Assembly: GCA_021781215.1 (NCBI GenBank)
Contig: JAJXXC010000002.1
Coordinates: 16,274-80,273, forward strand
DNA: 64,000 nt
Origin: a bacterium
Lineage (GTDB): Bacteria; Patescibacteriota; Saccharimonadia; Saccharimonadales; DATKHC01
Reading direction: 5' to 3'
Below are positions 32,467 to 56,680 of this stretch, in pieces. How positions within the stretch are numbered: the stretch's first letter is position 1; every line of letters begins with the position of its first letter. The position numbers and the translations under genes are program-made. The notes below the pieces were generated by a model. That model did no database searches. It saw only the letters and a program-made list of their open reading frames with translations, and was not told where the DNA came from.

Positions 32467-33720
32467 CTATATAGGATTACATGAATCGCCCGGGTTAGAG
32501 CCAGTAAGTTCAGTTTGCCCAACCAATGTAGGCGCAATCGAAGATGGTGATGGACCTGGTGTAGATGGAATGGGTCCAAATGGTGCATTAGATCCACCCC
32601 CTACCGGAGCTGTTGGCAATGAGTAAGATGGGCTAGACGGAGTCAGTTGATAATTCAAGGCTATGAATGGGTTTGGATTACCCGGCTGAGAGTATTCATA
32701 TAGATAGTTATAGTAATTGTCTACTATTAGCGGCTTACATATTGACTGGTAGGCCTGTAGCGCGAAGTTTGGTGGTAAGGGTATGCTATATGGTGAAGAA
32801 TTAGTGCCCAGTGGGTTTACATAGGCGCTAAGTCGCTTTAAAACCGTCCTAGATAATCCTGTAGCATCTATTTGAATTTGAGAATTCGAGAATGCTATTT
32901 GGTTATTTGAAGCGTCGTAGCCATTAAAATCTACTGTTTGAGGTGTACCATAGTAAAATTGAATTCTTATATAATAAGTGCTACTGGTATCTAGTCCGCC
33001 GATTGTAGATGTACAACTACCCCCCTGGCAAGAAGCAGGAATAATTGGGGCCGTGCCACCAGTTAAACTGCCAAAATTCACGTAAGAAGAGGCTGTATTT
33101 TGTGGATATAGGAAGAAGGTTCTTACATTAGTTTCAAGATCCGATACATTGGTAACTCCTCGCTGAAATGGGACTAAATCAATTCTTAGAACTTCTGGAC
33201 AATTTGACCAATTCGAAGACGGTAGGAATGAACTAGTTGACTGACAGGCACCAATATTTTTATTAGCGTCTGTCCAGCTAAGATTAAAATGATCAATACC
33301 GTTACCAACGCTTGCGATATGGGCTATTATCGCATTATTAGGGCAATATGTCGGACACTGGTATCTGAGGGTATTAGGATTAGCGTTAACTAGTATACAT
33401 GTGTATTTGGTATTTTGAGTGCTGCCAACGTCGGCACCAGTATAATAAGGACCGGTACAAGAACCTGTTTGCTGAGGAACGGGTAGGCCTTGATTTTCAT
33501 AATTACGAATTACCGAATAAGTATTATTAATTCCACTCTGAGCGGCATAAAGAGCTTGAGTACTTAAAACTTTGTTTAAAGCATTAACGCCTGCTTTGTT
33601 TGAAATTTGAGCAAAACTTAAAATTAAAATTCCAAAGATCATCATAACCATAATAGTTACGAAAAAGGCAGCAAAACCATTCTGATTATTATTTATAGTC
33701 GAGTGATTAATTTTTTTCAT
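32467..33720 (-). CDS. PilX_N-like minor pilin / large pilus-associated protein
   Basis: 417 aa. N-terminus NQNGFAAFFVTIMVMMIFGILILSFAQ resembles the PilX N-terminal hydrophobic segment. The remainder is S/T/N/G/Y-rich with several Cys pairs. Confidence 0.5.
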   Translation of the reverse strand: MKKINHSTINNNQNGFAAFFVTIMVMMIFGILILSFAQISNKAGVNALNKVLSTQALYAAQSGINNTYSVIRNYENQGLPVPQQTGSCTGPYYTGADVGSTQNTKYTCILVNANPNTLRYQCPTYCPNNAIIAHIASVGNGIDHFNLSWTDANKNIGACQSTSSFLPSSNWSNCPEVLRIDLVPFQRGVTNVSDLETNVRTFFLYPQNTASSYVNFGSLTGGTAPIIPASCQGGSCTSTIGGLDTSSTYYIRIQFYYGTPQTVDFNGYDASNNQIAFSNSQIQIDATGLSRTVLKRLSAYVNPLGTNSSPYSIPLPPNFALQAYQSICKPLIVDNYYNYLYEYSQPGNPNPFIALNYQLTPSSPSYSLPTAPVGGGSNAPFGPIPSTPGPSPSSIAPTLVGQTELTGSNPGDSCNPI

Positions 33721-33728
33721 AAATTAGA

Positions 33729-34391
33729 TTAATTTTGTGTATACGCCTGGGTGCTAAAACTATAAATTGCACAAAACGGTCCAATTAAAACCGTTGGCCT
33801 GCATATCCATTGACTGCCATTATTATTTTGCACTAGATTAGACTGATTCCCGTATAAGATTTCTATATTTACAGAATAAAGCCCACTGGAAACATTAGAT
33901 AACATGCTCTGATTATCATATACTGTATGATTTAGAATTTCCACATTATTGGGCGATAGCAAGGATTGAGTATCGGCACTAAGTCCAGAATTGTTAATAA
34001 ATTGCTGTGGTGAAAAACAATTTTGGCTGCCCAATACTCCCTGCAGAGATACAATCGGTATTTTATATATATTCCCTCCCGGAATATAGAAATATTCATT
34101 CTGAGTTGTGCAAAAATAATAATAAATAGTTGCCTGAGATCCGGTCTTTGTTACTTGAGCAGACTGATCAGTAGTTATTGAAGCAGTTGTGCTAAATTCA
34201 ATATCTCTTGTCATAGTATCCGAAAGGCTAACCGCAATATTCTGAGTTTGACCTCTAATAAAACCATTCGTATAGGTTTTAGATATCTGGATCACTCCAT
34301 AGGTAACAATAAATAGTACAGCCGTAAATACTGATGTAGCTATCAATAGTTCTATTATCGTAAAACCATTTTGATCAAGCTTCTTAATCAT
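33729..34391 (-). CDS. Type IV minor pilin/pseudopilin (class III signal peptide)
   Basis: N-terminus MIKKLDQNG|FTIIELLIATSVFTAVLFIV: G at -1, F at +1, E at +5. Confidence 0.65.
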   Translation of the reverse strand: MIKKLDQNGFTIIELLIATSVFTAVLFIVTYGVIQISKTYTNGFIRGQTQNIAVSLSDTMTRDIEFSTTASITTDQSAQVTKTGSQATIYYYFCTTQNEYFYIPGGNIYKIPIVSLQGVLGSQNCFSPQQFINNSGLSADTQSLLSPNNVEILNHTVYDNQSMLSNVSSGLYSVNIEILYGNQSNLVQNNNGSQWICRPTVLIGPFCAIYSFSTQAYTQN

Positions 34392-34858
34392 ATTGAAGCC
34401 TGATATGAAATACTTAAATTATCGCAATTAAATAGACTTTGACTATTGCAGGCGTGATTAACTGGATTAATACTCAAATTGCGCCAGTAAACGTTAATGG
34501 TAAATGTATAGTCGTAGGTTGTGGGCGGATTAGGAGGTGTGGGGGCTTGAAATTCATACATAAAAGCACCTTTTGTTTGTAGGCTAGAAGTAGCCTGATA
34601 ATTATTGCTACTATTTAAATAGAAATTTCCACCGGATGGATTAATAGAGGTGGGGTTGGAGGCTAATAGCTGTTTTAGAGATTCAATTTGACCAGAAGCA
34701 ATATTTAAAGCCGTTACTCTATTTTCTGAGTTTATAATATTATCTAATGAATATTGAGCCGATTGGTATGCGCCTGTTAAAACAAACGCCAAAATCACCA
34801 TTGCAATCAATACTTCGACAATAGTATCACCATTTTTATTTAATTTAAGTATTCTCAT
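34388..34858 (-). CDS. Type IV pilin-like protein with an atypical processing site
   Basis: MRILKLNKNG|DTIVEVLIAMVILAFVL: E at +5 is conserved but +1 is Asp rather than Phe/Met. 4-nt overlap with the downstream pilin gene. Confidence 0.5.
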   Translation of the reverse strand: MRILKLNKNGDTIVEVLIAMVILAFVLTGAYQSAQYSLDNIINSENRVTALNIASGQIESLKQLLASNPTSINPSGGNFYLNSSNNYQATSSLQTKGAFMYEFQAPTPPNPPTTYDYTFTINVYWRNLSINPVNHACNSQSLFNCDNLSISYQASI

Positions 34859-34869
34859 AGATTAATCCT

Positions 34870-35712
34870 CTAACAACCAGTATAACTATAATTTAATAAT
34901 AGGTTTGTTGCATCAGACTTTCCCTCAAAAGAAATCTGAACAAATTCTCTAGGCTCAAGTGGAGAGCTCAGGCAAACTACAACTGAGCCCACGGGATTGA
35001 TATTGTAGCCACCTACTACTCCGTTAACTACGCTGTCTGCATTTATATAGTTTATGGCATTAGAAGAAGCAGAGGCTTCAGTGGGTATGATAAAAAGATT
35101 GTTTCCGAGAGAACTATTGTCGGTTAAATTTGAGGTTTGAATATTATAAAAACCTACAATATCATTTACGATACCTACAGGATTTCCTGAATAGGTGACT
35201 TTAGAGACAGTAAATTGATCAGGTAATCCTACTACTTTAACTCCTTGGGGAGGAAAACTGCCCGATATCCCAGATCCAACACTAGCGAATACTTTCGCAG
35301 ACCGTGGAAAGGGTGGTGGTGGGTTAAGTGATGTTCCGCCAAATTGATTACCAACCAAACTATAAACATAATAAAAAGACGACCTTGTAGCTAATGGGTT
35401 AAATTGGATGGCTTTACCCACATAAACACAGCCCAAATTCGTGCCTTGGCTTTGAGCGACTGGTGAAAAATATGGTGAGCCCGAAACATCCTTACATGAC
35501 ACGGGACTATTAGTTGTGTAGAGACCATTTTGAACATCAGTGCTAAGCGACTGTAGCTCAGTATATATTTGTCTGGCGCCTGTATCAAATTCGGTTTGTT
35601 TCTGGTCACCGTTCATTGCCATAGCGGCAGCAACAAATAAAAATGAGGCTAGCCCAAGTACAATTAACACTTCTATTATAGTAAAACCGCGTGGTAAATG
35701 ACCACTATTCAT
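34870..35712 (-). CDS. Type IV pilin-like protein (minor pilin)
   Basis: MNSGHLPRG|FTIIEVLIVLGLASFLFVAAAMA. Confidence 0.65.
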   Translation of the reverse strand: MNSGHLPRGFTIIEVLIVLGLASFLFVAAAMAMNGDQKQTEFDTGARQIYTELQSLSTDVQNGLYTTNSPVSCKDVSGSPYFSPVAQSQGTNLGCVYVGKAIQFNPLATRSSFYYVYSLVGNQFGGTSLNPPPPFPRSAKVFASVGSGISGSFPPQGVKVVGLPDQFTVSKVTYSGNPVGIVNDIVGFYNIQTSNLTDNSSLGNNLFIIPTEASASSNAINYINADSVVNGVVGGYNINPVGSVVVCLSSPLEPREFVQISFEGKSDATNLLLNYSYTGC

Positions 35713-35758
35713 GAACTAAATTATAGCATAAGCGTAGTGCTATTACCTGATAAAGAGC

Positions 35759-36574
35759 CTAGCCAATTAATCCGGTATACCAATTCAAGATTTGTGACCC
35801 AAAGAAAAAACACAAGAACGTACTAAAAATTAATAACGGCCCAAAGGCTATGGTCATATTAGCTTTTAATTTCTTCGTTATTAACAAAAACCCCGACATT
35901 AAGCTGCCTGCTAATGAGGCCAAAAAAAGCATTAAAACAACTTCTAGCGGACCGCCCAATATAATGCCGAGTGCGATACATAGCTTAACGTCTCCCCCGC
36001 CTATCCATTTACCATTTGAAACCTGAAAAATTAAATAAAATATACCTGCCGAAAATAGCACTCCATATAATCGAGCCAATAGATAAGCTGAGGTTTGATC
36101 ATATTTAATATAGTAGATAGTAGCAAAGACTAGGGATAGAAAGATGGCACTATAAACTAAATTATTTGGCAGAATCTTATATTTAAAATCGTAGATTGCT
36201 AAACCTACTAGTATTACTAAAATTACCAACCAAAGCATCAACAATATATAGTCCCATAAGTTAAAGCTATATGGCCAGTAAAAGTATGATAGAGAGAATA
36301 GCACTCCGGTGATTAACTCAACTATAGGATATTGAAGACTTATGGCTTTGTGACAATATCTGCACTTGCCTCTTAATAATAACCAGCTAAAGATTGGGAA
36401 TAAGTCGACCGGCGACAATATATGCTTACATTTTGGGCACATTGACCTTCCCTTAAAAAATGAGTGTTTTTTGCTGACTTTTTTTGAAGAACTATATTTT
36501 AAGTGTAGCCTCCATACAAAAGAATTAATGAAACTGCCAAATATAAGACCGAGTACCAGAAAGATTATTGTCAT
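35759..36574 (-). CDS. pilD: Prepilin peptidase (A24 family)
   Basis: N-terminal TM, the cytoplasmic tetracysteine CPKCKHIL...CRYCHKAIS, and multiple TM helices with the conserved Asp-bearing GGGDVKL. Confidence 0.8.
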   Translation of the reverse strand: MTIIFLVLGLIFGSFINSFVWRLHLKYSSSKKVSKKHSFFKGRSMCPKCKHILSPVDLFPIFSWLLLRGKCRYCHKAISLQYPIVELITGVLFSLSYFYWPYSFNLWDYILLMLWLVILVILVGLAIYDFKYKILPNNLVYSAIFLSLVFATIYYIKYDQTSAYLLARLYGVLFSAGIFYLIFQVSNGKWIGGGDVKLCIALGIILGGPLEVVLMLFLASLAGSLMSGFLLITKKLKANMTIAFGPLLIFSTFLCFFFGSQILNWYTGLIG

Positions 36575-36643
36575 AATTTTTACTACTTACAATAGTAACA
36601 TCTTATATAGATAGAAAATAAGCCTGATATTGTTTACTGGTTT

Positions 36644-37255
36644 CTACTGAGCCTGCAAACAGTTCCAGTCAGGGGCACCAGATGTCTGTGAAGTATACAA
36701 TATAGCAATATTAGACTGGCTGCCTGCTGTAAGAACGAGTGATGGACCGCTTAGGGTTGCTGTGTTGGATGCGTTTTGGCAAGTGACTCCCGGATCAATA
36801 ACTACTACCCAAGGAAATGGTGAATAACTAGTAATGGCGCTGGCGAGCAATAAGGTGCCTGCTCCCGATACGCTTTCACTGCCCAAATACCATCCAGATG
36901 AAATAGTAGACGATGTTGATGCTGCGCCATTTAAATTAGCACTGTTAAAAGCAGTGGGTGGTGGTGGTTGCGTACCCGGTTCAACTAATTTAGAAAGTGC
37001 TCCGACGTTATTATATATATCTGAAAGCTGTGTATTCGAAGTTGGTACTATTCCATTATTATTTGAGGACCAAGTGCTAACAGCCGCTGCAATATGAGAA
37101 GCATCTGTCTTGGCGGCAGTGTTGGCTTGTGACCTTTGAAGGCCTGGAACAGCTAGCAATACTACAGCCATAATTAATCCGGCAATAGCCAGTACAATCA
37201 ATACCTCTATGATGGTAAAACCACTATTGTCATTACTTTTTAATATTTTATTCAT
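36644..37255 (-). CDS. pilA: Type IV major pilin (PilA-like)
   Basis: MNKILKSNDNSG|FTIIEVLIVLAIAGLIMAVVLLAVPGL: a canonical class III signal peptide and alpha1 helix. 203 aa, located between pilC and pilD. Confidence 0.75.
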   Translation of the reverse strand: MNKILKSNDNSGFTIIEVLIVLAIAGLIMAVVLLAVPGLQRSQANTAAKTDASHIAAAVSTWSSNNNGIVPTSNTQLSDIYNNVGALSKLVEPGTQPPPPTAFNSANLNGAASTSSTISSGWYLGSESVSGAGTLLLASAITSYSPFPWVVVIDPGVTCQNASNTATLSGPSLVLTAGSQSNIAILYTSQTSGAPDWNCLQAQ

Positions 37256-37349
37256 TGTTTTGGTGCCCCTATTATATATGATTAAAATTATATCGCTTAT
37301 GGCTATTGTATGCTAGTTAGAAATAGATAACAATACGAATATTCTTACC

Positions 37350-38576
37350 TTAAGTTCCTCCAGTAAAACTACTATTGCCCGCAAGGCTATAAATCGGAAG
37401 CAGTACTGCTGCAACAATGATAAAAGCAAAAACTCCTAAAACAATCATCAGAACTGGTTCAATTAATGTCGATATATTTTTGACCTCATCATCTACTTCT
37501 TTTTCGTAATAGATGGCCAGTCTCTCTAGCATTTGATCAATGGTTCCAGAGGCTTCACCAATTTTTAACATACTTGGCACCAATGGCAAAAAATTCTTAT
37601 TGTTTTCAATAGTTTCAGACAATGACTTGCCGAGTTTAACTTTTTTTATAGATTCAACGATTGTGCCCTCTATGTGGACATTGTTAATTGCCTTAGATGT
37701 AATTTCCAGAACCTGAATTAAGGGTAAGCCGCTACTAACTAATGTTGCTGCTGTTCTAGAAAATCTTGCCATATATAGTTTCATAAACAAAGGACCGATT
37801 GGCCAAATATTCATCTTCAAATTATCGAGGGTTTCCGTACCTACTTTAGTTTTTCTCCATGAATTTATAAATACAATGATCACAACTAAAACTAGAATGA
37901 TTAACCACCAAAAACCAATTATAAAATGAGATACGCTAAGCAAAACTCTAGTTAAGATAGGTAAACTACTGCCACTTGCAAGCCCATTGTATAAAGTCCC
38001 TACTGCAGGCAAAACTTTAACCACCATAAATGACATAACACCAAGCATGACAATTAATACGATAATTGGATAAGTAAACGCGCTTCTAATTTTTTTATTT
38101 ACATCAGCATCTTTCTCTAATTGATCAGCTAATCTTTCCAAAGATTTATCAAGCGACCCAGAGATTTCACCCGCGGCTATCAAATTTAAATATATAACTC
38201 CAAATACCTTTGGGTATGCTGATAGCGCCTGAGAAAGCGATTTACCAGATTTAATTGCATCAATTACCGACCGAATAATATCTTTTAGGTTTTTAGCTTG
38301 TGTCTGGTCCGCAGTATTAACTAGTGCCTGCATCAAGGGCAAACCGGCATTAATTAAAGTAGATAATTGTCGAGTAAAAAGTATAGTGTCTTTTTGTTTA
38401 ACTTTTGAGCTCGTAAAAGAAAAAGCTGAAAATGGATTCTTTAATTTAACGTCTATTGGATTTAGCCCCTGTTTTCTAATGGTTTCGGTAGCCTCTTTAA
38501 TGCTCCCGGCTATAAGATCTGAGCTTACTCTTTTACCAGTAGCAGCTTTTATTGCTGAGAATTTATATATAGGCAT
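37350..38576 (-). CDS. pilC: Type IV pilus platform protein PilC (GspF family)
   Basis: 408 aa, two T2SSF repeats, three TM segments. Confidence 0.85.
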   Translation of the reverse strand: MPIYKFSAIKAATGKRVSSDLIAGSIKEATETIRKQGLNPIDVKLKNPFSAFSFTSSKVKQKDTILFTRQLSTLINAGLPLMQALVNTADQTQAKNLKDIIRSVIDAIKSGKSLSQALSAYPKVFGVIYLNLIAAGEISGSLDKSLERLADQLEKDADVNKKIRSAFTYPIIVLIVMLGVMSFMVVKVLPAVGTLYNGLASGSSLPILTRVLLSVSHFIIGFWWLIILVLVVIIVFINSWRKTKVGTETLDNLKMNIWPIGPLFMKLYMARFSRTAATLVSSGLPLIQVLEITSKAINNVHIEGTIVESIKKVKLGKSLSETIENNKNFLPLVPSMLKIGEASGTIDQMLERLAIYYEKEVDDEVKNISTLIEPVLMIVLGVFAFIIVAAVLLPIYSLAGNSSFTGGT

Positions 38577-39646
38577 TATTCTCTCACCATTCTCTCTAAT
38601 TCATCAGCATCAACCGCAAAGCTCATGGCGTTATCAAAGGTTATAGTCCCTTTTTGGACTAGATTTGCTAAGGTTCTATCCATGGCCTGCATACCAAATT
38701 GAGCACCTGTTTGAATTACTGCCTCTAACTGATGGCTTTTGCCTTCTCTGATTATATTTCTTACAGCCGCATTGGCAATTAAAATTTCAGCGGCGGCAAT
38801 TCTTCCACCCCCAGTGGTCGGAATCAACCTTTGGGAACAAATTGCCATTAAAATACTCGATAGCTGTGTACGAATTTGATTTTGTTGGTGTGGAGGAAAT
38901 ACGTCAATCATTCTATCAATACTTTGTGATGCTGAATTGGTATGAAGTGTTGCAAACACTAAATGACCAGTCTCGGCGATAGTAATTGCGGCGGCAATTG
39001 TTTCAAGATCCCTCATTTCACCAATTAAGACTACGTCGGGGTCTTCTCGCAAAACAGACCTTAGTGCTACCCCAAAAGAAAAGGTGTCATAATGCACTTC
39101 TCTCTGAGCTACTACGGATCTAATTGACTTATGCATGTATTCAATTGGGTCTTCAATAGTAATAATATGAGCAGCTTTTTCACTATTAATTTTGTGAATT
39201 ATAGATGCCAAAGTAGTTGATTTACCCGAGCCAGTTGGACCCGTAATTAATACTAAGCCCCGCGGATAATTTCCAAACTCGTTAACAATCGCCGGTAATC
39301 CTAGCTCCTCAACAGTAAAAATCTTGGTTGGGATAAGCCTTAGGGCCATCGCCAAGTTGCCACTTTCATGAAATGAGTTAACTCTGAATCGAGCCTGATC
39401 ACCAAAAGCAAAACTGAAATCAAACTCCTTATCTTTTAGAAGAATTTGTTTCTGATCATCGTCCAATATTGAAAATATCAGTAGTTCGACATCAGCCTCA
39501 GTTAATGGTTTATACCCAGCAACCGGAGCCAATACTCCGTCAACACGAATCATTGGTGGCGTTGCCACTTGAATATGAAGATCTGACGCATTGCGTTTAA
39601 TAACTTCACTGAGTAGATTTTCGATTTTTAATTCTTGGTTCATCAT
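38576..39646 (-). CDS. pilT: Twitching-motility retraction ATPase PilT
   Basis: 356 aa. Walker A GPTGSGKSTT, Asp box, His box, and the PilT-signature AVRNIIREGK (AIRNLIRE). Confidence 0.85.
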   Translation of the reverse strand: MMNQELKIENLLSEVIKRNASDLHIQVATPPMIRVDGVLAPVAGYKPLTEADVELLIFSILDDDQKQILLKDKEFDFSFAFGDQARFRVNSFHESGNLAMALRLIPTKIFTVEELGLPAIVNEFGNYPRGLVLITGPTGSGKSTTLASIIHKINSEKAAHIITIEDPIEYMHKSIRSVVAQREVHYDTFSFGVALRSVLREDPDVVLIGEMRDLETIAAAITIAETGHLVFATLHTNSASQSIDRMIDVFPPHQQNQIRTQLSSILMAICSQRLIPTTGGGRIAAAEILIANAAVRNIIREGKSHQLEAVIQTGAQFGMQAMDRTLANLVQKGTITFDNAMSFAVDADELERMVRE

Positions 39647-39658
39647 ATTATCTATAAT

Positions 39659-41446
39659 TTATGCGTTGTCTGTAGCTGCGACTCTATCAACTTCCTGTAG
39701 AGTTGTCTGTCCAGCTAAGGCTCTTAAATAACCGTCCTGCCTTAATTCAATCATCCCCTGTGATATGGCAACTTTTTGGATTTCTTCACTGGTTACACGT
39801 TTCATTATTAGATTTTGAATTTCCTGTGTTACCTCAAATACTTCGAACAAACCCAATCTTCCGCGATATCCGTTCGGATAACCAGGGCTTTCGATTCCCT
39901 TATATAAAGTATAAGCATTTTGGTTAGCTAATGGCAAATTATCATAGCCTAAATCAGCCGAGACTCTAGCTACATCAGCGGGGGTTTTGGGTAGTAAATT
40001 CCCTACTGTCTTGTGAATAGCATCAGTCTCGATACTGCTGGATTGGTAAGCCGTTTTGTCATTACTAATTCTTCTAATTAATCTCTGTCCAATTACCGTT
40101 CTAACCGTACTGGCAATTAAGAATGGCTCAACTTCCATATCTAGTAATCGGGGCAATATTCCAGCCGCCGAGTTAGTATGGAGCGTAGATAGCACTAAAT
40201 GCCCGGTTAAGGACGCCTGCACAGCTAAGGCTGCGGTTTCACCATCTCGTATCTCACCAACCATTACCACGTTTGGGTCTTGTCTTAATATTGATCTAAG
40301 CCCGGTTGAAAATGTTAGACCTATATCAGGATTGACCTGTATCTGATTAATCCCGTCCATTTTATACTCAACCGGATCCTCCAAGGTCACAATATTTATC
40401 GAATCACTCTTAATTTCTTGAATTAAGGCGTATAGAGTGGTCGATTTACCCGATCCAGTGGGACCACTGGTTAAGATCATGCCGCTAGATTGTTTCAAAG
40501 ATAATTGGATAGCTCTAAGCGATCTACCGGTAAAGCCCATTTGATCGAGCTTAAGATTAATTCCGGTTTTATCGAGTAGCCTAATTACAACCTGCTCCCC
40601 CCACACAACTGGCGCTATGGCAATTCTAAGGTCGATTTCCTTATCTGGTAATTTAAAGGTAAATTGTCCGTCTTGAGGTATTCTATGCTCATCAATTTTT
40701 AAGTTAGACAGAATCTTAATCCTAGAGATTAGAGCGGCTTCAGTATTTTTTGGTAATATCATCAATTCACGCAAAATACCGTCAATTCGACATCTAATTT
40801 TCAAATTATACTCTAAGGGCTCAACATGAATATCACTGGCCCCATTATCTGCAGCATAGGTCAAAATAGTAGTCAGAGTTTTTGAGATTGGAGAATCTTG
40901 ATCGTTGGTAATTGAGATTTTTTTGCTACTTATTAGAGAGTCACCGGCATCAGATTCCTTGTTTTGTTCTTGATCTATATTTTTACCTATATTTTTATCT
41001 ATGAACGTTTGGTATTGTTTCAAGACTCTTTTTATACCGGTTTCACTAGCTGAATAGACTTTAAGCGGAACCCTAATCTTATTAGATAAAAAATCTACTA
41101 CCTGAACATTATCAGCATCCAACATTGCTACGACTAGATACCCCTGGCTCTTACCAAGAGGTACGGCCATGTATTTTTCAGCAGTTTCTTTAGGTAGCAT
41201 AGCTAAAAATTCAGGATCAACGTAGGCATTACTCAAATCTACATAGGGTAGTTTATTTATCTTGGCCAAAATTTTAGTTACGGCCTCTTCGGATATTTTT
41301 TGTTTATTTATTAAGTACGCCAGTATTGGGGTTTTAGCTTTTTCGGCTTCAAGTTTTAAGCTACTGAATTCGGTTGCAGAAAAATATCCATCTTGGATAA
41401 ACGTTTCTTCTAGTCGACTTTGGTTAACTGGTGAGAGTAGGCTCAT
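39659..41446 (-). CDS. pilB: Type IV pilus extension ATPase PilB (GspE family)
   Basis: 595 aa. N-terminal GSPII_E_N domain and C-terminal ATPase (SGPTGSGKSTTLYA, VGEIRD, HT...STLHTNSA). Confidence 0.85.
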   Translation of the reverse strand: MSLLSPVNQSRLEETFIQDGYFSATEFSSLKLEAEKAKTPILAYLINKQKISEEAVTKILAKINKLPYVDLSNAYVDPEFLAMLPKETAEKYMAVPLGKSQGYLVVAMLDADNVQVVDFLSNKIRVPLKVYSASETGIKRVLKQYQTFIDKNIGKNIDQEQNKESDAGDSLISSKKISITNDQDSPISKTLTTILTYAADNGASDIHVEPLEYNLKIRCRIDGILRELMILPKNTEAALISRIKILSNLKIDEHRIPQDGQFTFKLPDKEIDLRIAIAPVVWGEQVVIRLLDKTGINLKLDQMGFTGRSLRAIQLSLKQSSGMILTSGPTGSGKSTTLYALIQEIKSDSINIVTLEDPVEYKMDGINQIQVNPDIGLTFSTGLRSILRQDPNVVMVGEIRDGETAALAVQASLTGHLVLSTLHTNSAAGILPRLLDMEVEPFLIASTVRTVIGQRLIRRISNDKTAYQSSSIETDAIHKTVGNLLPKTPADVARVSADLGYDNLPLANQNAYTLYKGIESPGYPNGYRGRLGLFEVFEVTQEIQNLIMKRVTSEEIQKVAISQGMIELRQDGYLRALAGQTTLQEVDRVAATDNA

Positions 41447-41466
41447 ATTACTAAAATCTTTGCTTA

Positions 41467-41709
41467 TTAATGAGTGAATGGAGAATTGTTTGCGTTATTA
41501 CCAATTTTAACTAGTAGAGTTGGGTCAATAGAATTTGAGTTTAAATATTGATTACCTGGTAACTTAAAAGTGGTATTAATCGTGTTAACGACCGTAACTT
41601 CTTGCTGAGTAGAAATAAAATGCGACAGAAGTGCCGAGGTAACAATTATAGCCAAAACTGCACTCAAAAACATTGTGCTAATAATTAACGCTAAGTCATT
41701 TTTTTTCAT
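41467..41709 (-). CDS. Small single-pass membrane protein in the PilP position
   Basis: 80 aa, one TM (LALIISTMFLSAVLAIIVTSALL) plus a short extracytoplasmic tail. 4-nt overlap with upstream pilO-like gene. Confidence 0.35.
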   Translation of the reverse strand: MKKNDLALIISTMFLSAVLAIIVTSALLSHFISTQQEVTVVNTINTTFKLPGNQYLNSNSIDPTLLVKIGNNANNSPFTH

Positions 41710-42407
41710 TGTACAACCTCCGTGCTGGTATAGATTCCCGATGAAGGATTGTAATAGTAGGTTTGGGCTGTAATCGAAGCAGTTAAATCAGCGTCGGTAC
41801 CTGTCAATTGAATGGTCAATATATCAATTGGTGAAACCGACCTATTAATAACGGCTAAGAAATTCTGAATATTAGTATAGCTCCCTTGTACTGAAAACGA
41901 TATTGGAATAGGCACGGGCTGAGCAGACTGGACTAAAGATAGTGAATTATCGGTACCGGTCAAACTTTCGACAGTGATGCCCGGCATAGTAAACAATGCC
42001 TGCAGACTAGATATTATTGCCGGGAAGTCGTATGACTGAGGCAGTGCATCTAGAATAATTTTAGCGTTATTCCCAGAAGTTGAGCCATTACCGGTACTTG
42101 AACCACCAATTATATTGACAGGCTGATTAATAAAATTAGTGTAGGCACTTTGTACATTATTGGCAACCTGCTGATCCTGGACAATATTATTAATTGAAGT
42201 CCTTTGAGCCGATAATACTCGGCCTTGATAAATATAAAAACCAAGCAAAGTTTTGCTAGTAAAAAGTCCAAATATTAATAAAAATGAAGCAATTGCCAGA
42301 GAGGTCACAGCATTAGCTTTGGCTTTATCGATTTTAATCTTAGTATTTAGTTTAGCTTTCATCTTTTTACCCGTTTGACGTATTAAATAATGCCGCTGGT
42401 TGATCAA
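41706..42407 (-). CDS. pilO: PilO-like pilus alignment protein (bitopic); the true start is probably the internal Met at ~42362
   Basis: Basic cytoplasmic N-terminus, one TM (AVTSLAIASFLLIFGLFTS), then an extracytoplasmic domain. Sits between pilN and pilB. Confidence 0.5.
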   Translation of the reverse strand: MINQRHYLIRQTGKKMKAKLNTKIKIDKAKANAVTSLAIASFLLIFGLFTSKTLLGFYIYQGRVLSAQRTSINNIVQDQQVANNVQSAYTNFINQPVNIIGGSSTGNGSTSGNNAKIILDALPQSYDFPAIISSLQALFTMPGITVESLTGTDNSLSLVQSAQPVPIPISFSVQGSYTNIQNFLAVINRSVSPIDILTIQLTGTDADLTASITAQTYYYNPSSGIYTSTEVVQ

Positions 42408-43047
42408 CTGCAGACCTTGTAGTAATTTTATTCGGAACTATTAACTGAACCCCGGATACACTTGTAGCAAAGATTTGAGGAGAGAAAACAGCCGTAACTG
42501 AAAAATTTTGACCAGTAGTTGAGGCTGGAGAATAGGAATAGCTCGATAAAACAACTTTGCTAAACGCCAGTTGATTCGAGGTAGTACTACTGGTGGTATA
42601 TTCACAAAACTTTAGTGTATCGACGAAAGTATTTATTGAATCTATAGTATTGGCGCTACCGGAAAGACTAATCGTATTAGTGGTAAAGTTTAAACTTAGG
42701 GTCTTTATAGACACACTAGCTGGTGTTATGAGTGATAAATATTGGGATAGGCGAGTAACATCTGGCCTTGAATTATATAGTATCGGCAACGCCTTAATCG
42801 TATCGTTAATTTTAAGAATTGAATTTAAACCGGACACCTTATTTAAAGTAGCTATATTATTAGTTATCTGCTCCCTATTTTTAGATATGTTATTCCCTTG
42901 GACAATCTTAACTTCGATGAATAATCCGATCATTATTGCAATCATTAAGACAGAGCCTAAGAATGTGACTCTAGTAATGAGATTATAAATCTTTTTAGCT
43001 CTTATTTCGTACAAGACGGAATCTGGTAGTAAATTAAGTTGAATCAT
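42367..43047 (-). CDS. pilN: PilN-like pilus alignment protein
   Basis: N-terminal MIQLNLLPDS (the INLLP motif), one TM, and an extracytoplasmic domain. Confidence 0.6.
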   Translation of the reverse strand: MIQLNLLPDSVLYEIRAKKIYNLITRVTFLGSVLMIAIMIGLFIEVKIVQGNNISKNREQITNNIATLNKVSGLNSILKINDTIKALPILYNSRPDVTRLSQYLSLITPASVSIKTLSLNFTTNTISLSGSANTIDSINTFVDTLKFCEYTTSSTTSNQLAFSKVVLSSYSYSPASTTGQNFSVTAVFSPQIFATSVSGVQLIVPNKITTRSAVDQPAALFNTSNG

Positions 43048-44078
43048 TCTATTCTCTCCGCCAACCCTACTGCAACACCAAAATAATCTGATATCGCTAA
43101 TAATTCATTCTGTCGCTTTATATCATAAGCTACATTTCTCCAGGCATTACCTATTTCAACATCTATACCTGTATGATTAGCAACTGCTAGAGGAAATTCT
43201 GGAATGATTGCCGCTGATCCAGCAACAATTATCTTACTAAGTTTAATATTGTATTTATCAGTGAAAAATTTAATACTCATATCAATTTCGGCCAAGAGCG
43301 AATTGACTGGATTAATAATCGCTTGATAAACCTGACCCTGAGCTCTGGTTTTATTTAATCCAAATTTAAATACCACTTCTTCAGCTTGTTCTCTCTTGAT
43401 ATTTAGGTCTTGGGTAGCAGCGCGAATAAGAGTCTCGGTGCCATAATTGATTGATCTCGTCAGCATTGCCGCATTATTCATACTAATTACCAAATCGGAG
43501 TTATAGCGCCCTAGATCAAAAACCATCTGCGGGCTAGTGTTGCTAGGATCCAATAAAGCACGGGTTAGGGCTAAGTTATCTGGTTCTAACGAAATAACTT
43601 TCAAACCAATCGACTCAAGCATATCTAATCTTTCTTTGGCTACGCTATTTAAGACACTGCTAATGAGCAGCTTTACCTTAGCAGGGTTCGTAGGAGAGTC
43701 ACCAATAATTGACCAATCGACTTTTGATTCATCAATTGGGGTCGGAATAAAAGAACTAATTTGAAATTTAATACTTTTAATCATTTCCTTGCGTGGTAGT
43801 TTATCTACCTCGACTACAGTAGTAAAAACTTTTTGCGATGGCAGACCAACAGCAACATTCTTGGTAGTAATTTTAGATTTAGTAATTAACTGTTTTAAGG
43901 CATTGGTAACCATGATGTTTGATTTTGTATCAACTGCCGGAGTCGTCGTGTCTAGCGGTGCAAAACCATATTTAACTAAGTTTTTTACTGGTCCACTGCC
44001 CTGTAATTGGACTAGTCTGATAGAAGAAGTACCAATATCTAGCCCAAAGAAATCAGTAACCCCATGTAAAATGCTCAT
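43044..44078 (-). CDS. pilM: Actin-like pilus assembly ATPase PilM
   Basis: FFGLDIGTSSIRLVQL (the actin/HSP70 phosphate-1 motif). 344 aa. Confidence 0.8.
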   Translation of the reverse strand: MSILHGVTDFFGLDIGTSSIRLVQLQGSGPVKNLVKYGFAPLDTTTPAVDTKSNIMVTNALKQLITKSKITTKNVAVGLPSQKVFTTVVEVDKLPRKEMIKSIKFQISSFIPTPIDESKVDWSIIGDSPTNPAKVKLLISSVLNSVAKERLDMLESIGLKVISLEPDNLALTRALLDPSNTSPQMVFDLGRYNSDLVISMNNAAMLTRSINYGTETLIRAATQDLNIKREQAEEVVFKFGLNKTRAQGQVYQAIINPVNSLLAEIDMSIKFFTDKYNIKLSKIIVAGSAAIIPEFPLAVANHTGIDVEIGNAWRNVAYDIKRQNELLAISDYFGVAVGLAERIE

Positions 44079-44139
44079 ATTGTTAAAATTATATCATAAG
44101 CATAAGCATCAACTGACTAAAAAATTGAGTTACAAAAAA

Positions 44140-47100
44140 TTAAATGACTGGAGATAATTCAGTTAAAGCCTGATAATCTGGATTTACAGGCAAAGAACCC
44201 TGGACTTGAGATAACCAAACCTCCGGCCCATAATTGAAGGTTTCTGCTGCGCCAGTAGATCCATACTGTCCGGGTAGGCCGCCATAAACTCTACCGAACT
44301 TTATCTGATTAGCAACAAGGGATCCGTTAACTGTTAGTTGGTTATTACATCCGGCAATTAACGCTTGATCAGCTTGATTCCCAGAAAATGAATTACCGGT
44401 ACCGGCGTTTGCGCAAGTAAAGATCGTACCATTTGCCGAATAAACCCCATCAATACTAGTAGCGGCACTATCTATATAGATATTAGAATTAGAAATGACG
44501 TAGAGTAGTGGAATATCTGCAGCCGAATTTAGACCCGAGCCATTATTATAGATACTTATACTTTCGCTAATCTCAGCATTGCCATTAATATAAACTACGA
44601 CTTTAGATCCAGCCGGTGGATTGCCGCTAATTTTTATCGGTCCATTAAGGCTGCAGTAATTAGTCGTATCAATTAGTTTACAGGCACTGTTACCAGTAGC
44701 AGTCGATAGATCAAACCCACCAGATGCTGGAGAGACAGAGAAACCGACTAGATTATTCTTTGTTGAATAATAATCGAGGTTACATACTCCGTTGGCTGAG
44801 CCAAAATTACCGCCATATGGAGCGTTAACAGTGTTAGCAAAAGTTAATGCGTCTCCTCCACTACCAGTGGATAAACCATTTATTACACTAGGAGCGAGTG
44901 CCGACAAATTATCCGATGCTCCGATCCATGAAGAACCACCAACATTTGAAGCAAATATATTAGCAGAATAGTTTGGTGAGCAAAATCCGTTACTATTAGC
45001 CGAGCCACTGCCGGCTATAATATCTCCGCCGCTAACTGTAAAATATGGTTGTGAATCACAAATTGTAGCCTGATTCTGGTAAGCGGTTTTCCATACATTA
45101 AGGGCAGACACTGACGCATTATATAAATTAAGATCTTGATTATAAAAACTATTTGAGTTATAGGTTGGATACCATGGGGCCAATAAAGGATAGTTCATAG
45201 TCTGATAATAAGTATTATCACTTAGATTCAACCATGGCTTGTAATAAGGCTGCATGTCATTCCAGGCAGTAATTGCTGCAGTCCTAGCTGCAGCTTCTTG
45301 CGCTCGGGCTGGTGGCATAGCTATATTATAAGCATTTCGTGCTGCAATGACTGCTGCCTTATAATTAGCGAGGTTTGTCTGATAAGCTAATTCGCCAGCG
45401 GTATTTGACGCAGTGATAATCGCATTAGCAGCCGCATTACTGGTGGTCACAGGGGTAACAACATAGGTGGTGGTGGGTGGCACCCAAATATACCCACTGT
45501 GTCGATTGTGATTCTTAAGGCTGCCACTTGTCCAGTATTTCCAGTAGCCAGGCGTAGTGACAGGAGTGATGGTATAAGTGGTAGTGGTGGGGGGAAGTAG
45601 CGCTGTGGGAACAAATGCTGCTGGGGGCCCGCTATTTACAACAGCGTCATATGCGGCCTGAATACTTGCAACGTTAGCTACGGCATTATTATAGGCATTG
45701 TAGGCATTAATATACGTGCTTAAAGGGCCTTGTAGCGCCACGGCCGCATTATCAGTCGCAGTTTTATAGTGTTGATAGCCATCCCAAAAAGTACTCCCCT
45801 GATAACTTCCCTGGTCATAGTTAAACCAATTATTGTAGGCAGGATTATATACATTTTTCTGAGCTGCTTCTTGCGCAAGTCCTGCGGCTGTACAAGCTAA
45901 AGACGTAGAGCCAGACCCCGAAGGGCTGCCACCCCATACTATTGAAGTCGGTGAGCAAGTTATGTTTGTGCCATTACCATTTGATGAAGTTACATAGGTT
46001 AGTGATGCTGAATAGACAATTCCCCCTGACGCACTCATGCTAGGAGAATCTACGATCGTTATCGGGTTAGAGTTTGAGTTGCCCTGATTCCACATATAGC
46101 CCGGCGGCCCGAGACTTACGCCCACCGGCCCCTGGAGTACTTGGGGGGCAATATTCTCTCCTGGCCCATTACCGTTAACTATCTTTTGAACTACTACATC
46201 CTTTACTCTTATTGCAGTTGGATTTGCAGTTGGTAAATGCCAATTAATATATACAGAAGTTTGTTGATTCAAGCTTGGCGAATAATTAGTTGCTACCATT
46301 AGGCAAGAAGCGACACAAATACCTACACAAGCTATCTGTGGAATCCTCCCCTGGGGATATGATGAAATATTACCACATACTATATCTAGTTTATTATAAA
46401 AACCATTAGTGGGTATTGAACCACACTTACCGGCCCATTGTGGTCCCACTAGCCCCACCATTGTTCGCGGAGTCGTATCGGCCGCAGCTCTTCCAATATC
46501 ATAAGACCCAGAGGTGATATCCATGGCAGTATTATAGGTGTCGGTCATGTTCTTTTGCTGACACACCTGATTATTATTATCATAACTTACTACTAAATCA
46601 GTTATAGGCGATATTACGTTAAAAAGTGTTACGTATGATCCATTATAGTGAAAATAATTAGTTGAAACATTATCGCCTTTTAAGATAGTCAACATATCGA
46701 ATGCCGCACCAATATTGTCCAATGAAGCTATAGAGTTTGGATTTGTTAAGCCTGTATTTTCAGTATATCCACAGCTACTTGCATTGACGCCATAATAGTA
46801 CGCGAATAATGATGCCAATAATATATATGCATCACTAGTTTTATTTGTAATGCCAATGTTTGCTTTAGCCGCTTGATAGGCGGCCGCCCCTCCGTTAAAG
46901 CCACTGCCATAGAAGTTATTTCCATTAGCTGCTGCAACTACACAAAAATGAACGCCCCACTGCACCAGCGCATCACAAGTACTGGTCATACATATGTTTG
47001 ACCTATTTGTGTAAAATTCTTGCCCGGATGTAATTGACGCGGCGCTAGCATATGGTGCGAAAATGAGTTGAGATAAAATTGTAGCGATAAAAACTATTAC

Positions 47101-47142
47101 TACTGATATGGTTTTTAAATTAAAACTTCGGAGCATTACCAC
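44140..47142 (-). CDS. Giant (1000 aa) secreted low-complexity protein, immediately upstream of pilM
   Basis: Signal peptide MVMLRSFNLKTISVVIVFIATILSQLIFAPYASA|AS. The mature protein is dominated by N/S/G/T/A/Y with scattered Cys. No enzymatic motifs were found. Confidence 0.55.
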   Translation of the reverse strand: MVMLRSFNLKTISVVIVFIATILSQLIFAPYASAASITSGQEFYTNRSNICMTSTCDALVQWGVHFCVVAAANGNNFYGSGFNGGAAAYQAAKANIGITNKTSDAYILLASLFAYYYGVNASSCGYTENTGLTNPNSIASLDNIGAAFDMLTILKGDNVSTNYFHYNGSYVTLFNVISPITDLVVSYDNNNQVCQQKNMTDTYNTAMDITSGSYDIGRAAADTTPRTMVGLVGPQWAGKCGSIPTNGFYNKLDIVCGNISSYPQGRIPQIACVGICVASCLMVATNYSPSLNQQTSVYINWHLPTANPTAIRVKDVVVQKIVNGNGPGENIAPQVLQGPVGVSLGPPGYMWNQGNSNSNPITIVDSPSMSASGGIVYSASLTYVTSSNGNGTNITCSPTSIVWGGSPSGSGSTSLACTAAGLAQEAAQKNVYNPAYNNWFNYDQGSYQGSTFWDGYQHYKTATDNAAVALQGPLSTYINAYNAYNNAVANVASIQAAYDAVVNSGPPAAFVPTALLPPTTTTYTITPVTTPGYWKYWTSGSLKNHNRHSGYIWVPPTTTYVVTPVTTSNAAANAIITASNTAGELAYQTNLANYKAAVIAARNAYNIAMPPARAQEAAARTAAITAWNDMQPYYKPWLNLSDNTYYQTMNYPLLAPWYPTYNSNSFYNQDLNLYNASVSALNVWKTAYQNQATICDSQPYFTVSGGDIIAGSGSANSNGFCSPNYSANIFASNVGGSSWIGASDNLSALAPSVINGLSTGSGGDALTFANTVNAPYGGNFGSANGVCNLDYYSTKNNLVGFSVSPASGGFDLSTATGNSACKLIDTTNYCSLNGPIKISGNPPAGSKVVVYINGNAEISESISIYNNGSGLNSAADIPLLYVISNSNIYIDSAATSIDGVYSANGTIFTCANAGTGNSFSGNQADQALIAGCNNQLTVNGSLVANQIKFGRVYGGLPGQYGSTGAAETFNYGPEVWLSQVQGSLPVNPDYQALTELSPVI

Positions 47143-47202
47143 TATTCTACAACATATTAGTTTTTCCCGTAATTTAAATTATAACGGATACATGTATGCA
47201 CG

Positions 47203-48924
47203 CTATAGGGGGTGAGCAGTTACTTTGCTATTATTATAATCAGCTACCCAGAGGTTAGTACCGTCATATAGTATCGATGTACTCGTACTTGGCAGTAACC
47301 TATAATTAAACTTAGCTATTAGTCTAGTGCCGTTAGTAGTGTACTCTGATGCCGATGCTACTGGATAAACACTTGTCACAAATAAATCGCTTCCAGTAAA
47401 AATTATTTGGTCTGGACTAATAACGTTTATCTCTCTAACGTATGCTCCGTCTGCTGCATTAAATTCAATAGCCTTATTGTTGTCGGTGCTAGTAATCCAT
47501 ACGTAACCACTATGATAAGAAACACAATTTATTCCTGAACCATATTGTGGTTGAGTCTGCCTCAAATAAGCCCCCGTGTTAATACTATACTGATATGCCG
47601 AATTACTAATCTGGTCTGACACCCAAATATAATTTCCATCGACTGCTAAACAAGTGGGATTGCCGAGAGCATGTGATGAGTTGCCCCTTATAGCCCTCAC
47701 AATGTTTCCACTAGTAGCGTTAAACTCAGATAGAAATGATCCGGGGCCTGCTGATGAACCAGTATTATTATTAGCCACCCAAATATGCGTTCCATCAAAA
47801 GCTAGGGCTGCTGGAGCATATATATCCGTACCAGTAATCGTCTGTTTCAGAGATCCGGTAGATGCATAAAACTGTGTTAGGGAATTACCCGAACGATTAG
47901 CCACCCAAATATGCGTTCCATCAAAAGCTAGGGCGTCGGGACAGCTAAACCCATAAGAGAGATTAGAAGGATTAGACGTGTTAGTTAAGGTCATAATAAT
48001 CTGTTTAGTATTCTTATCAATCTCAGTGACTGCATTTCCTTGACAACTAGCAACCCAAATATCTGAACCAGCCTGAACAAATGCATCAGGACCAGCTGGT
48101 ACGGATATCGTATTACCGGTACTTACTGGAGGCGGGGTTGTTGTGGTGGGTGGGGGCGTTGTGGTTGTGGTAGTAGGAACCGTAGATGTTGGATAAACAA
48201 TCACTGTCAAAACTTTAGTAGTTGCACTAACATCACCGTTCACGGTTAGTGTAAAGACATAATTAATTTGAGATGGGGACGAGTTAGCTGGCATTACTAC
48301 GGGGACTGAGATTGATCCTGAACCACATGGAACAATGTTGCTACTAGTGCCTTGAATAGCTGGGCTTGCTGTAATACTACAACCAATTTCATTAGCTACC
48401 TGTCCGGTTAAAGTTACGTTACCACCGGCATTAGGTAATCCACTAACTGAAGCTGTGAAGCTTTTTATAACAGGTCTAGGCGCAGCAACCACAGTCACTC
48501 TTTTTAAAGGCGCAACAGCTACTCCCTTACCTTTTCTGCCAGCAACAATCAGTTTAAAAGTATATACAATATTTGAACCAGAAATATTTTTAGGCAAGCT
48601 AGGTGTGTATATTACCACCCCATCTCTGCAGGCTATATTCCTATTTACTCCAGCCACAGCTGGAGAAACTCTAAAAATACATTTAGTAGCATTTTTAACA
48701 TCTGCCGAAAGTCTTATACGACCACCTGGGTAGTTTAGAGTAACTGGGGCAACAACAAAATTACTTACTGCCGGTTTAGTCGAGATAGCTGCAGATACTC
48801 CACCGACAGAGGCTAGTGATGCGACAAGTAGCAGCAGGGCAACCGAAGTCACTCTCAAGTCTCTGAACATCGCTAACTTACGCTTGTTCTTATATTTTAA
48901 GTATAATAGTGTCTTTTCATCCAT
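47203..48924 (-). CDS. Secreted Ig-like + 7-bladed beta-propeller protein (NHL/YVTN-type repeats); the start is probably the internal Met at ~48870
   Basis: Signal peptide MFRDLRVTSVALLLLVASLASVGGVSAA. Two ~100-aa Ig-like modules and a TTTTTPPPTTTTPPP linker. Seven repeats of G-T/S-x-I/L-W-V-A/S-N/D (DIWVASCQG, THIWVANRSG, THIWVANNNTG, NYIWVSDQIS, GYVWITSTDN, SDLFVTSVYP, TNLWVADYNN). Confidence 0.6.
   Translation of the reverse strand: MDEKTLLYLKYKNKRKLAMFRDLRVTSVALLLLVASLASVGGVSAAISTKPAVSNFVVAPVTLNYPGGRIRLSADVKNATKCIFRVSPAVAGVNRNIACRDGVVIYTPSLPKNISGSNIVYTFKLIVAGRKGKGVAVAPLKRVTVVAAPRPVIKSFTASVSGLPNAGGNVTLTGQVANEIGCSITASPAIQGTSSNIVPCGSGSISVPVVMPANSSPSQINYVFTLTVNGDVSATTKVLTVIVYPTSTVPTTTTTTPPPTTTTPPPVSTGNTISVPAGPDAFVQAGSDIWVASCQGNAVTEIDKNTKQIIMTLTNTSNPSNLSYGFSCPDALAFDGTHIWVANRSGNSLTQFYASTGSLKQTITGTDIYAPAALAFDGTHIWVANNNTGSSAGPGSFLSEFNATSGNIVRAIRGNSSHALGNPTCLAVDGNYIWVSDQISNSAYQYSINTGAYLRQTQPQYGSGINCVSYHSGYVWITSTDNNKAIEFNAADGAYVREINVISPDQIIFTGSDLFVTSVYPVASASEYTTNGTRLIAKFNYRLLPSTSTSILYDGTNLWVADYNNSKVTAHPL
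47771..47934. repeat. 38-nt perfect intragenic direct repeat (two copies, 126 nt apart) inside the beta-propeller gene
   Basis: TTAGCCACCCAAATATGCGTTCCATCAAAAGCTAGGGC at 47771-47808 and again at 47897-47934. The spacing equals one 42-codon propeller blade (FDGTHIWVAN twice). Confidence 0.6.
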
Positions 48925-56676: not shown

Positions 56677-56680
56677 ACGA

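Follow-up and report, generated by a model that had tools for sequence, protein, structure and literature searches.

A secretin-less type IV pilus locus of a Saccharibacterium and its pilM-linked beta-solenoid protein

The window considered here is a 64-kb stretch of bacterial DNA (64,000 nucleotides, contig JAJXXC010000002.1), and its region 32467-48924 carries sixteen consecutive co-directional open reading frames (ORFs) on the minus strand, which had been listed in an earlier note on the sequence and were all recovered by ORF calling and translation, with the same coordinates and sizes. Thirteen of them, from pilM to a gene for a 417-aa PilX-like protein, form a conserved core of 11.6 kb. 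This core is the type IV pilus locus one (T4P-1, 'locus one') of a Saccharibacterium and thus one more representative of a system that has already been described and studied by experiment, because its genes and its flanks match published loci. The only unreported feature of the locus is the gene next to pilM, which encodes a 1000-aa secreted protein ending in a beta-solenoid and whose family is secreted, fast-evolving and both tightly and widely linked to pilM. Taken as a whole, the region is therefore read as a type IVa-like, retractile and secretin-less T4P-1 machine, accompanied by a pilM-linked solenoid protein which may act as a pilus-linked surface protein; the probability of this reading is put at roughly 0.8.

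Gene content, gene order and domain identities were established in this analysis by Pfam and NCBIfam profile searches, and all window ORFs of at least 100 aa were scanned for a secretin, PilP and TsaP. In order of transcription, the solenoid gene and the core genes are:

44140-47142, minus strand: 1000-aa Sec-secreted solenoid protein, with the C-terminal solenoid domain at residues ~696-1000 (44140-45057)
43044-44078, minus strand: pilM, actin-like cytoplasmic alignment protein (PilM_2, 2.7e-36)
42367-43047, minus strand: pilN, bitopic, with an N-terminal MIQLNLLP motif (Pfam PilN, 21.9 bits, cutoff 22.8)
41706-42407, minus strand: pilO (Pfam PilO, 29.5 bits, cutoff 22)
41467-41709, minus strand: 80-aa single-pass membrane protein, conserved between pilO and pilB (no Pfam or NCBIfam match)
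39659-41446, minus strand: pilB, extension ATPase (T2SSE, 1.4e-118, and MshEN)
38576-39646, minus strand: pilT, retraction ATPase (TIGR01420 pilT_fam, 474.8 bits, cutoff 319.1)
37350-38576, minus strand: pilC, platform protein (two T2SSF domains, 6.9e-57)
36644-37255, minus strand: pilA, 203-aa major pilin (N_methyl, 31.2 bits, and TIGR02532; 12-aa leader, G/FTIIE)
35759-36574, minus strand: pilD, prepilin peptidase and N-methylase (A24_N_bact, 7.9e-29, and Peptidase_A24, 6.6e-14)
34870-35712, minus strand: minor pilin 1, 280 aa, GspH/FimU position, G/FTIIE (N_methyl, 21.3 bits)
34388-34858, minus strand: minor pilin 2, 156 aa, GspI/PilV position, G/DTIVE (N_methyl, 24.5 bits)
33729-34391, minus strand: minor pilin 3, 220 aa, GspJ/PilW position, G/FTIIE (N_methyl, 21.7 bits)
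32467-33720, minus strand: putative PilX1/GspK-like tip minor pilin, 417 aa (assigned through homologs and predicted fold)

The profile check that had been proposed for the locus came out largely as expected, as PilM, PilO, PilB, PilT, PilC, PilD and the N_methyl segments of four pilins all exceed their cutoffs; PilN stays below its own, and PilX_N does not match the 417-aa protein of the window. Assignment of pilN is backed by its LNLLP motif, its transmembrane segment, its position between pilM and pilO and its homology to the genes found at the pilN position of related loci, and for pilO the ATG at 42362 is the likely start, which yields 218 aa and hence the length of the homologs. PilT, in whose sequence the AVRNIIREGK motif is seen, is the retraction ATPase whose presence inside the locus sets T4P-1 apart from T4P-2, and the proposal of a retractile pilT machinery of a bacterium of the candidate phyla radiation (CPR) stands on its score and on the match to published T4P-1 loci. 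PilB, as read from its translation, possesses one cysteine only and thus lacks the tetracysteine zinc motif of many PilB/GspE ATPases. No ORF of at least 100 aa in the window matches the Secretin, PilP or TsaP families, which agrees with the claim of a locus devoid of secretin and TsaP; the canonical equipment of diderm type IVa pili, i.e., the PilQ secretin with PilP, TsaP or PilF, was accordingly not found among these ORFs. Together these results support a type IVa-like pilus locus which is complete, contains PilT and lacks a secretin, and which belongs to a CPR bacterium (Saccharibacteria). Pili of monoderm bacteria such as Streptococcus sanguinis and Clostridioides difficile likewise comprise PilM/N/O, PilB, PilC, PilD and PilT, do without a secretin and are retractile, but differ from the window locus in their gene order and minor-pilin sets and possess neither the 80-aa component nor a solenoid partner.

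Assignment to the Saccharibacteria follows from a scan of species-representative genomes with PilM, which returned exclusively metagenome-assembled genomes of uncultured Saccharibacteria (52-54% identity, gene order identical), and homologs of both the 417-aa and the 1000-aa protein carry the label Candidatus Saccharimonadales. Comparison with cultivated strains identified the core in detail. The 'T4P locus one' of Nanosynbacter lyticus TM7x (TM7x_00415-00475; Grossman et al. 2025, PMC12206443) reads pilM1, pilN1, pilO1, the unnamed 00430, pilB1, pilT, pilC1, pilA1, pilD, pilV1, pilZ1, pilW1 and pilX1, and TXSScan found neither pilP nor pilQ in this strain (PMC12206443). Set against this published gene table, the window core consists of the same 13 genes in the same order with similar protein lengths, and the comparison with the TM7x locus that had been proposed hence shows agreement of the gene order throughout, whereas the three additional genes upstream of pilM, the solenoid gene included, lie outside the TM7x locus as described. 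In Southlakia epibionticum the same 13 genes (SEML1_0104-0116) constitute T4P1 and all of them are essential (Wang et al. 2023, PMC10633639); they are embedded in the order efp, tlyA, ychF (on the opposite strand), pilM to pilX1, a convergent tyrosine recombinase (SEML1_0117), ndk and tRNA-Arg (PMC10633639). Gene order and both flanks are identical in the window, the difference being that ychF abuts pilM in S. epibionticum while 6 kb with three genes are inserted between them here. The flanking genes of the window are:

51934-52497: efp, flank on the ychF side
51212-51937: tlyA, flank on the ychF side
50133-51215, plus strand: ychF (Pfam YchF-GTPase_C, 1.5e-35, and MMR_HSR1), the left backbone boundary, outside the pilus system
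31489-32463, plus strand: xerC-like tyrosine recombinase (Phage_integrase, 4.8e-44), the convergent right boundary
30885-31442: ndk, beyond xerC
29936-30010: tRNA-Arg, beyond ndk

The locus thus occupies the backbone site of T4P-1 between ychF and xerC-ndk-tRNA-Arg, with the 6-kb insertion separating ychF from pilM, and the convergent end with xerC that had been described before is confirmed by the Phage_integrase match. Relative to S. epibionticum, ndk and tRNA-Arg are moreover separated by an insertion at 30013-30698 (minus strand), which encodes a PIN-domain protein (4.7e-12) preceded by a small ORF.

What is known about the function of such loci comes from TM7x, TM7i and S. epibionticum, in which T4P-1 is essential, makes a retractile pilus of ~3 nm and is linked to twitching, properties known from these strains only. 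Pili of the orthologous loci were seen by cryo-electron tomography and are associated with twitching, and by analogy with the three strains the core of the window locus would serve the same pilus function. That these pili act in host attachment and twitching, as had been proposed, fits TM7x as far as twitching is concerned, since the pilT-containing locus was there inferred to drive it; host binding of TM7x was shown for the second pilus (T4P-2), and a role of the window locus in host attachment is therefore an inference.

Five pilin-like genes had been counted in the region, and one major and four minor pilins were indeed found, whereby N_methyl recognizes four of them (three marginally) and the 417-aa protein enters through its homologs and its fold. 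The major pilin possesses a C-terminal Cys159-Cys199 pair, and its G/F...E motif is kept in 34 related loci. The 280-, 156- and 220-aa proteins qualify as class III pilins with N_methyl scores of 21.3, 24.5 and 21.7 against a cutoff of 21.2, which are all marginal, and with motifs that are visible in the sequence. Their top NCBIfam matches remain under cutoff and are GspH for minor pilin 1 (3.7e-6), GspI and PilV for minor pilin 2, and weak GspI and GspJ matches for minor pilin 3. Minor pilin 2 is unusual in that its family reads G/DT[IV][IV]E. Wherever the motif can be recognized, i.e., in 15 of 15 such homologs, Asp occupies +1, a position normally taken by an N-methylated Phe, Met or Leu. 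The last pilin, i.e., the 417-aa protein, reads G/FAAFFV and is devoid of Glu5, and neither PilX_N nor any other Pfam or NCBIfam family matches the window copy; PilX_N was, however, matched by 12 of 24 homologs. An AlphaFold2 (AF2) model derived from a 24-sequence alignment predicts a 64-residue N-terminal pilin helix (residues 13-76), a beta-sandwich at residues 100-300 with a predicted local distance difference test score (pLDDT) of ~80-90, and a disordered Pro/Ser-rich tail, and on the basis of homologs and predicted fold the protein is considered PilX/GspK-like. Ending in a PilX1-type gene without canonical PilD site or Glu5 and with an extra beta domain, the locus conforms to T4P-1, as PilX1 of TM7x lacks a PilD site as well and carries a beta-sandwich or jelly-roll domain (PMC12206443), and as the last T4P1 gene of S. 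epibionticum was classed GspK-like plus galactose-binding-like (PMC10633639). The four minor-pilin genes would accordingly follow the GspH-I-J-K or FimU-PilV-PilW-PilX order of a priming tip complex, as family knowledge suggests.

The 80-aa membrane protein is a genuine conserved T4P-1 component. Homologs of 72-88 aa with an N-terminal transmembrane helix are found between pilO and pilB in 54 fetched loci, their ectodomain motif being KYFN..S.DPTQ.I.IG...N..PF, and counterparts exist in TM7x (TM7x_00430, unnamed; PMC12206443) and in S. epibionticum (SEML1_0107, 75 aa, essential; PMC10633639). Of the earlier description as a single-membrane-span gene at the PilP position, the position and the single membrane span were upheld. 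An identity with PilP was rejected, as the protein possesses neither a Cys lipobox nor a PilP domain nor a profile match and has no secretin to bind.

The view of the entire 16.5 kb as one 'supercluster' was not retained, as the conserved core comprises just 11.6 kb, the outermost gene (for a 573-aa protein) is shared by the four nearest relatives only, and S. epibionticum possesses neither of the two large genes. Neighbouring genes overlap or are spaced by 20 bp or less in the stretches pilM-pilC and pilD-417-aa gene; larger gaps precede the 1000-aa gene (60 bp), pilM (61 bp), pilA (94 bp), pilD (69 bp) and, inside the second stretch, the 280-aa gene (46 bp). Consensus scans of 31.4-50.2 kb yielded no excess of promoters (75 versus 64±8 in shuffled sequence) or terminators (10 versus 13±4), and the folds of five intergenic regions, with z-scores of 0.15 to 1.5, were none above chance. 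The one or two transcription units that had been proposed as probable thus gained no support from these scans and folds.

The 1000-aa protein probably starts at the ATG at 47136, which results in 998 aa. Its N-terminal region is variable and rich in Cys, its middle is rich in Ala, Asn and Tyr, and a conserved beta-solenoid domain with ...ELSPVI as its end makes up the C-terminal part; its former description as a low-complexity protein hence applies to the middle part, while the C-terminal 300 aa are a structured beta-solenoid. Exhaustive HMMER searches revealed that wide conservation is limited to the last ~300 residues and recovered 795 cluster representatives with the solenoid domain at E<=1e-3 (349 at E<=1e-10), whereas a word-indexed search with the same profile returned just 4 proteins. 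The domain is always C-terminal, its host proteins span roughly 300-1250 aa, and members of the family possess Sec-type signal peptides, their C-terminal end reading ...SLPPVL. Minimal members of 379 aa (in loci L074, L080 and L083) consist of signal peptide and solenoid and nothing else, which implies that the conserved function resides in the solenoid itself; in L080, ychF lies 182 bp off the start of the domain. Invariant polar residues of the domain comprise the Asp of a GGD motif, an Asn, an Arg and a Glu. The window holds no second copy of the domain.

An AF2 model from a 30-sequence alignment predicts the domain to fold into a beta-solenoid (pLDDT 75, predicted template modelling score 0.82) with the last 22 residues being unstructured. 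Structural comparison of the model put ComZ first and ice-binding proteins next, with bactofilin, adhesins and tapirins among the further top matches, and Foldseek against the PDB likewise placed ComZ and ice-binding proteins at the head, without the matches being significant; the solenoid profile has no sequence match in the PDB. On the grounds of this ranking a relation to the ice-binding protein family DUF3494, which is characterized by its sequence profile and by a triangular beta-solenoid with a flanking helix, may be considered. Membership in DUF7305 (Pfam PF23981) was rejected, as the score of 21.1 bits (E 3e-4) falls below the gathering threshold of 27 and only 5 of 30 solenoid family members match DUF7305 at E<=0.01; a literature search on this family found nothing. 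In ComZ of Thermus thermophilus (PDB 6QVI; Salleh et al. 2019, PMC6561018), the solenoid is part of a pilin, being set into a pilin fold of the GspK-like type. The window protein, by contrast, possesses a Sec signal, is devoid of a pilin domain and showed no similarity to ComZ in sequence, and a ComZ-like tip pilin was therefore rejected as identity of the 1000-aa protein. Tapirins of Caldicellulosiruptor (PDB 4WA0, 6N2B and 6N2C; bioRxiv 10.1101/359786) are cellulose-binding surface adhesins. In searches of the papers on TM7x, TM7i and S. epibionticum, neither a gene upstream of pilM nor ice-binding or ComZ-like domains turned up, and no publication on the solenoid gene was found.

Linkage of the solenoid gene to pilM was assessed independently of any pil gene, whereby metagenome contigs were scanned with two peptide patterns from the solenoid domain of distant family members (7-sequence alignment). 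The scan yielded 79 loci, 66 of them with at least 1 kb of downstream DNA, and in 61 of these 66 pilM follows 41-541 bp downstream (median 72 bp) on the same strand, succeeded by pilN, pilO, a small gene, pilB, pilT and pilC; the PilM proteins concerned share 45-86% identity with that of the window. Full-length homologs of the 1000-aa protein (43-49% identity) are situated directly upstream of pilM in L004-L006, and the same adjacency exists in L001, L010 and L013 as well as in L003, which was found via PilM rather than via the solenoid. Among the exceptions, pilM is 1.7 kb away in L081, the solenoid gene of L055 lies ~1.8 kb beyond xerC, and two further loci have a flank of only 1.6-1.7 kb. 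In L014 (25-3461) the solenoid gene resides between pilD and the GspH-like first minor pilin, an independent relocation that remained inside the pilus locus. The rate of evolution was compared in 54 locus pairs whose PilM proteins are 88-95% identical, and the median identities amount to 93% for PilT, 84% for PilB, 81% for PilC, 66% for PilO, 56% for PilN, 52% for the major pilin, 49% for the solenoid domain and 40% for the whole solenoid protein. In its rate of evolution the solenoid protein thus equals the major pilin and resembles those parts of the machine that are exposed.

The interval between ychF and pilM is variable, as is evident from the distance of ychF to the solenoid gene, which ranges from 0.2 to 8.3 kb with differing intervening genes; of the 29 loci whose flank is long enough, 22 have ychF upstream, and within this interval the solenoid gene is always the last member, next to pilM. 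Two further genes occupy the interval in the window:

49116-50036, minus strand: 306-aa orphan cytoplasmic protein (no Pfam match, no signal peptide)
47203-48924, minus strand: 573-aa secreted protein (Pfam NHL, 25.3 bits; weak SGL and Lactonase matches)

None of the 93 fetched loci encodes a homolog of the 306-aa protein. The 573-aa protein, for which M19 at 48870 is the likely true start, consists of a Sec signal peptide, two tandem repeats of ~95 aa, a Thr/Pro linker and an NHL-type beta-propeller; it had been called an Ig/beta-propeller protein, of which the propeller is borne out by the profile matches and the Ig part is backed by none. Its homologs (35-53% identity) are confined to the four nearest relatives (L004, L006, L011 and L012), where they are in each case flanked by ychF and the solenoid gene. 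Judged by their distribution, both proteins would represent lineage-specific cargo.

How the parts might work together can be outlined from established knowledge of the families, on which all steps of the mechanism rest. Prepilins would be cleaved and methylated by PilD, and PilM, PilN, PilO, the 80-aa membrane protein and the PilC platform would form the membrane complex. There, the 203-aa major pilin would be polymerized by PilB on a priming complex of the four minor pilins in GspH-I-J-K order, with the Glu5-less PilX/GspK-like 417-aa protein at the tip, and PilT would depolymerize the fibre, thus causing retraction and twitching. No secretin would be needed, because there is no outer membrane. 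Within this scheme the solenoid protein may be a pilus-linked surface adhesin or receptor, whereby docking to the pilus or the envelope would be the task of the solenoid and the conserved tail at its C-terminus, and the variable part would bind the host or some other ligand, in analogy to PilY1, ComZ and the tapirins. PilY1/PilC proteins, the tip-associated adhesins of diderm type IVa pili, are Sec-secreted non-pilins whose N-terminal part varies and whose C-terminal domain, a beta-propeller (Pfam Neisseria_PilC), is conserved; their genes accompany those of the pilus, and the proteins presumably sit on the tip complex of minor pilins. The solenoid protein follows the same logic, but its gene precedes pilM while PilY1 is encoded with the minor pilins. 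An identity with PilY1 was rejected for the 573-aa and the 1000-aa protein alike, as Pfam gave no match to the PilY1 C-terminal propeller and the propeller of the 573-aa protein is of the NHL type.

Several points weigh against this reading of the region. PilN and three pilin N_methyl segments have scores right at the thresholds of Pfam. The search for a secretin covered the window, and the rest of the genome could hold one, or a second pilus system. As conservation extends to the backbone order efp-tlyA-ychF...pilM, part of the adjacency could be inherited synteny. T4P-1 of S. epibionticum is moreover functional and essential without a solenoid gene beside pilM (PMC10633639), which implies that the solenoid protein is not a universal core part, and the structure-based annotation of this organism lists no ice-binding or ComZ-like domain.

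A more far-reaching proposal can be put forward tentatively, although we would sooner bet against it than for it: the solenoid proteins encoded upstream of pilM may be an unrecognized, widespread T4P-1 component, i.e., a Sec-secreted, fast-diversifying receptor at the tip or the base of the pilus. The conserved solenoid and the ...SLPPVL tail would attach this receptor to the GspK-like complex of minor pilins, while the N-terminal part with its variability would choose the host cell or ligand (possibly DNA) that the single retractile pilus takes hold of. In lineages possessing T4P-1 only, the receptor would be the functional counterpart of PilX2, the propeller adhesin which belongs to T4P-2 of oral clade-G1 strains.

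Alternatively, the solenoid, 573-aa and 306-aa genes may be unrelated cargo in a recombination-prone ychF-pilM interval, with the adjacency to pilM reflecting inherited synteny rather than function. The variable distance and content of the interval, the lineage restriction of the 573- and 306-aa genes and the direct succession of ychF and pilM in S. epibionticum all suit this explanation, which is nevertheless regarded as unlikely, given that the solenoid gene abuts pilM on the same strand with a median gap of 72 bp in 61 of 66 loci, down to a PilM identity of 45%, that the relocation in L014 led to another site within the T4P locus, and that even the 379-aa solenoid-only forms adjoin pilM. 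The likeness to ComZ, which resides at the tip of the Thermus competence pilus, raises the idea of a DNA receptor that works with the retractile pilus in natural transformation or nucleotide scavenging. This is a distinctly improbable explanation, as the solenoid protein is devoid of a pilin domain and bears a Sec signal instead of one of class III, as the non-significant Foldseek result places ComZ no nearer than ice-binding proteins, as S. epibionticum is competent without a solenoid gene at the pilM site, and as very fast evolution suits the recognition of a host or surface more than that of a generic ligand such as DNA. There is even less to commend an enzyme, i.e., a beta-helix depolymerase of glycan or peptidoglycan which would open the own wall or host surface layers for the pilus: beta-helices are common among depolymerases, the solenoid domain possesses invariant polar residues (Asp of GGD, Asn, Arg and Glu) and secretin-less pili must still cross peptidoglycan, but sequence and fold match no hydrolase or lyase family, Pfam detects no catalytic domain, and the best structural matches (ComZ, ice-binding proteins, bactofilin and adhesins) are non-enzymatic. 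Finally, a type II secretion or competence pseudopilus system instead of a true pilus, as might be read from the sub-threshold best matches of the minor pilins to GspH, GspI and GspJ and from the missing secretin, was rejected as highly implausible, because a PilT-family ATPase far over its cutoff and PilM, PilN and PilO are present and because orthologous loci make pili that are visible by cryo-electron tomography and associated with twitching.

Elsewhere in the window, the 23S rRNA gene (329-2436, minus strand) has only 2108 nt, and yet the Rfam model of the large-subunit rRNA is matched end to end; by blastn it aligns with ~47-260 and ~390-1916 of the E. coli 23S rRNA, while nothing aligns with ~1917-2830 (domains V-VI, peptidyl-transferase centre). 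Its shortness may stem either from an assembly collapse or from a split or fragmented gene, and no 5S rRNA was found in the window. A 193-aa ORF without match precedes the gene for an AbiEii-type nucleotidyltransferase toxin (1.9e-21), and the two, which lie at 55999-57262 on the minus strand with ftsK and RNase J as neighbours, are probably an AbiE toxin-antitoxin pair. A 917-aa HerA/DUF87-like ATPase, which is followed by two small ORFs without matches (9441-13083, minus strand), is located beside gyrB and may be a VirB4-like component of a Saccharibacterial type IV secretion system.

As to the pilus core, nothing new is added, as secretin-less PilT-containing pili have already been documented and genetically studied in cultivated Saccharibacteria. 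Host recognition is, however, the central open question for episymbiotic CPR bacteria, nearly all lineages of which are uncultured. The solenoid protein, which evolves at the rate of the pilin, varies in its N-terminal half and keeps its place beside pilM in a large share of the sampled environmental Saccharibacteria, is a candidate determinant of host specificity or ligand binding, and the pilus concerned is the one which those lineages share. Model strains may misrepresent the common architecture of the locus, as S. epibionticum lacks a solenoid gene at this site, and with the 80-aa membrane protein and the Asp(+1) minor pilin further small, testable parts of the machine are at hand.

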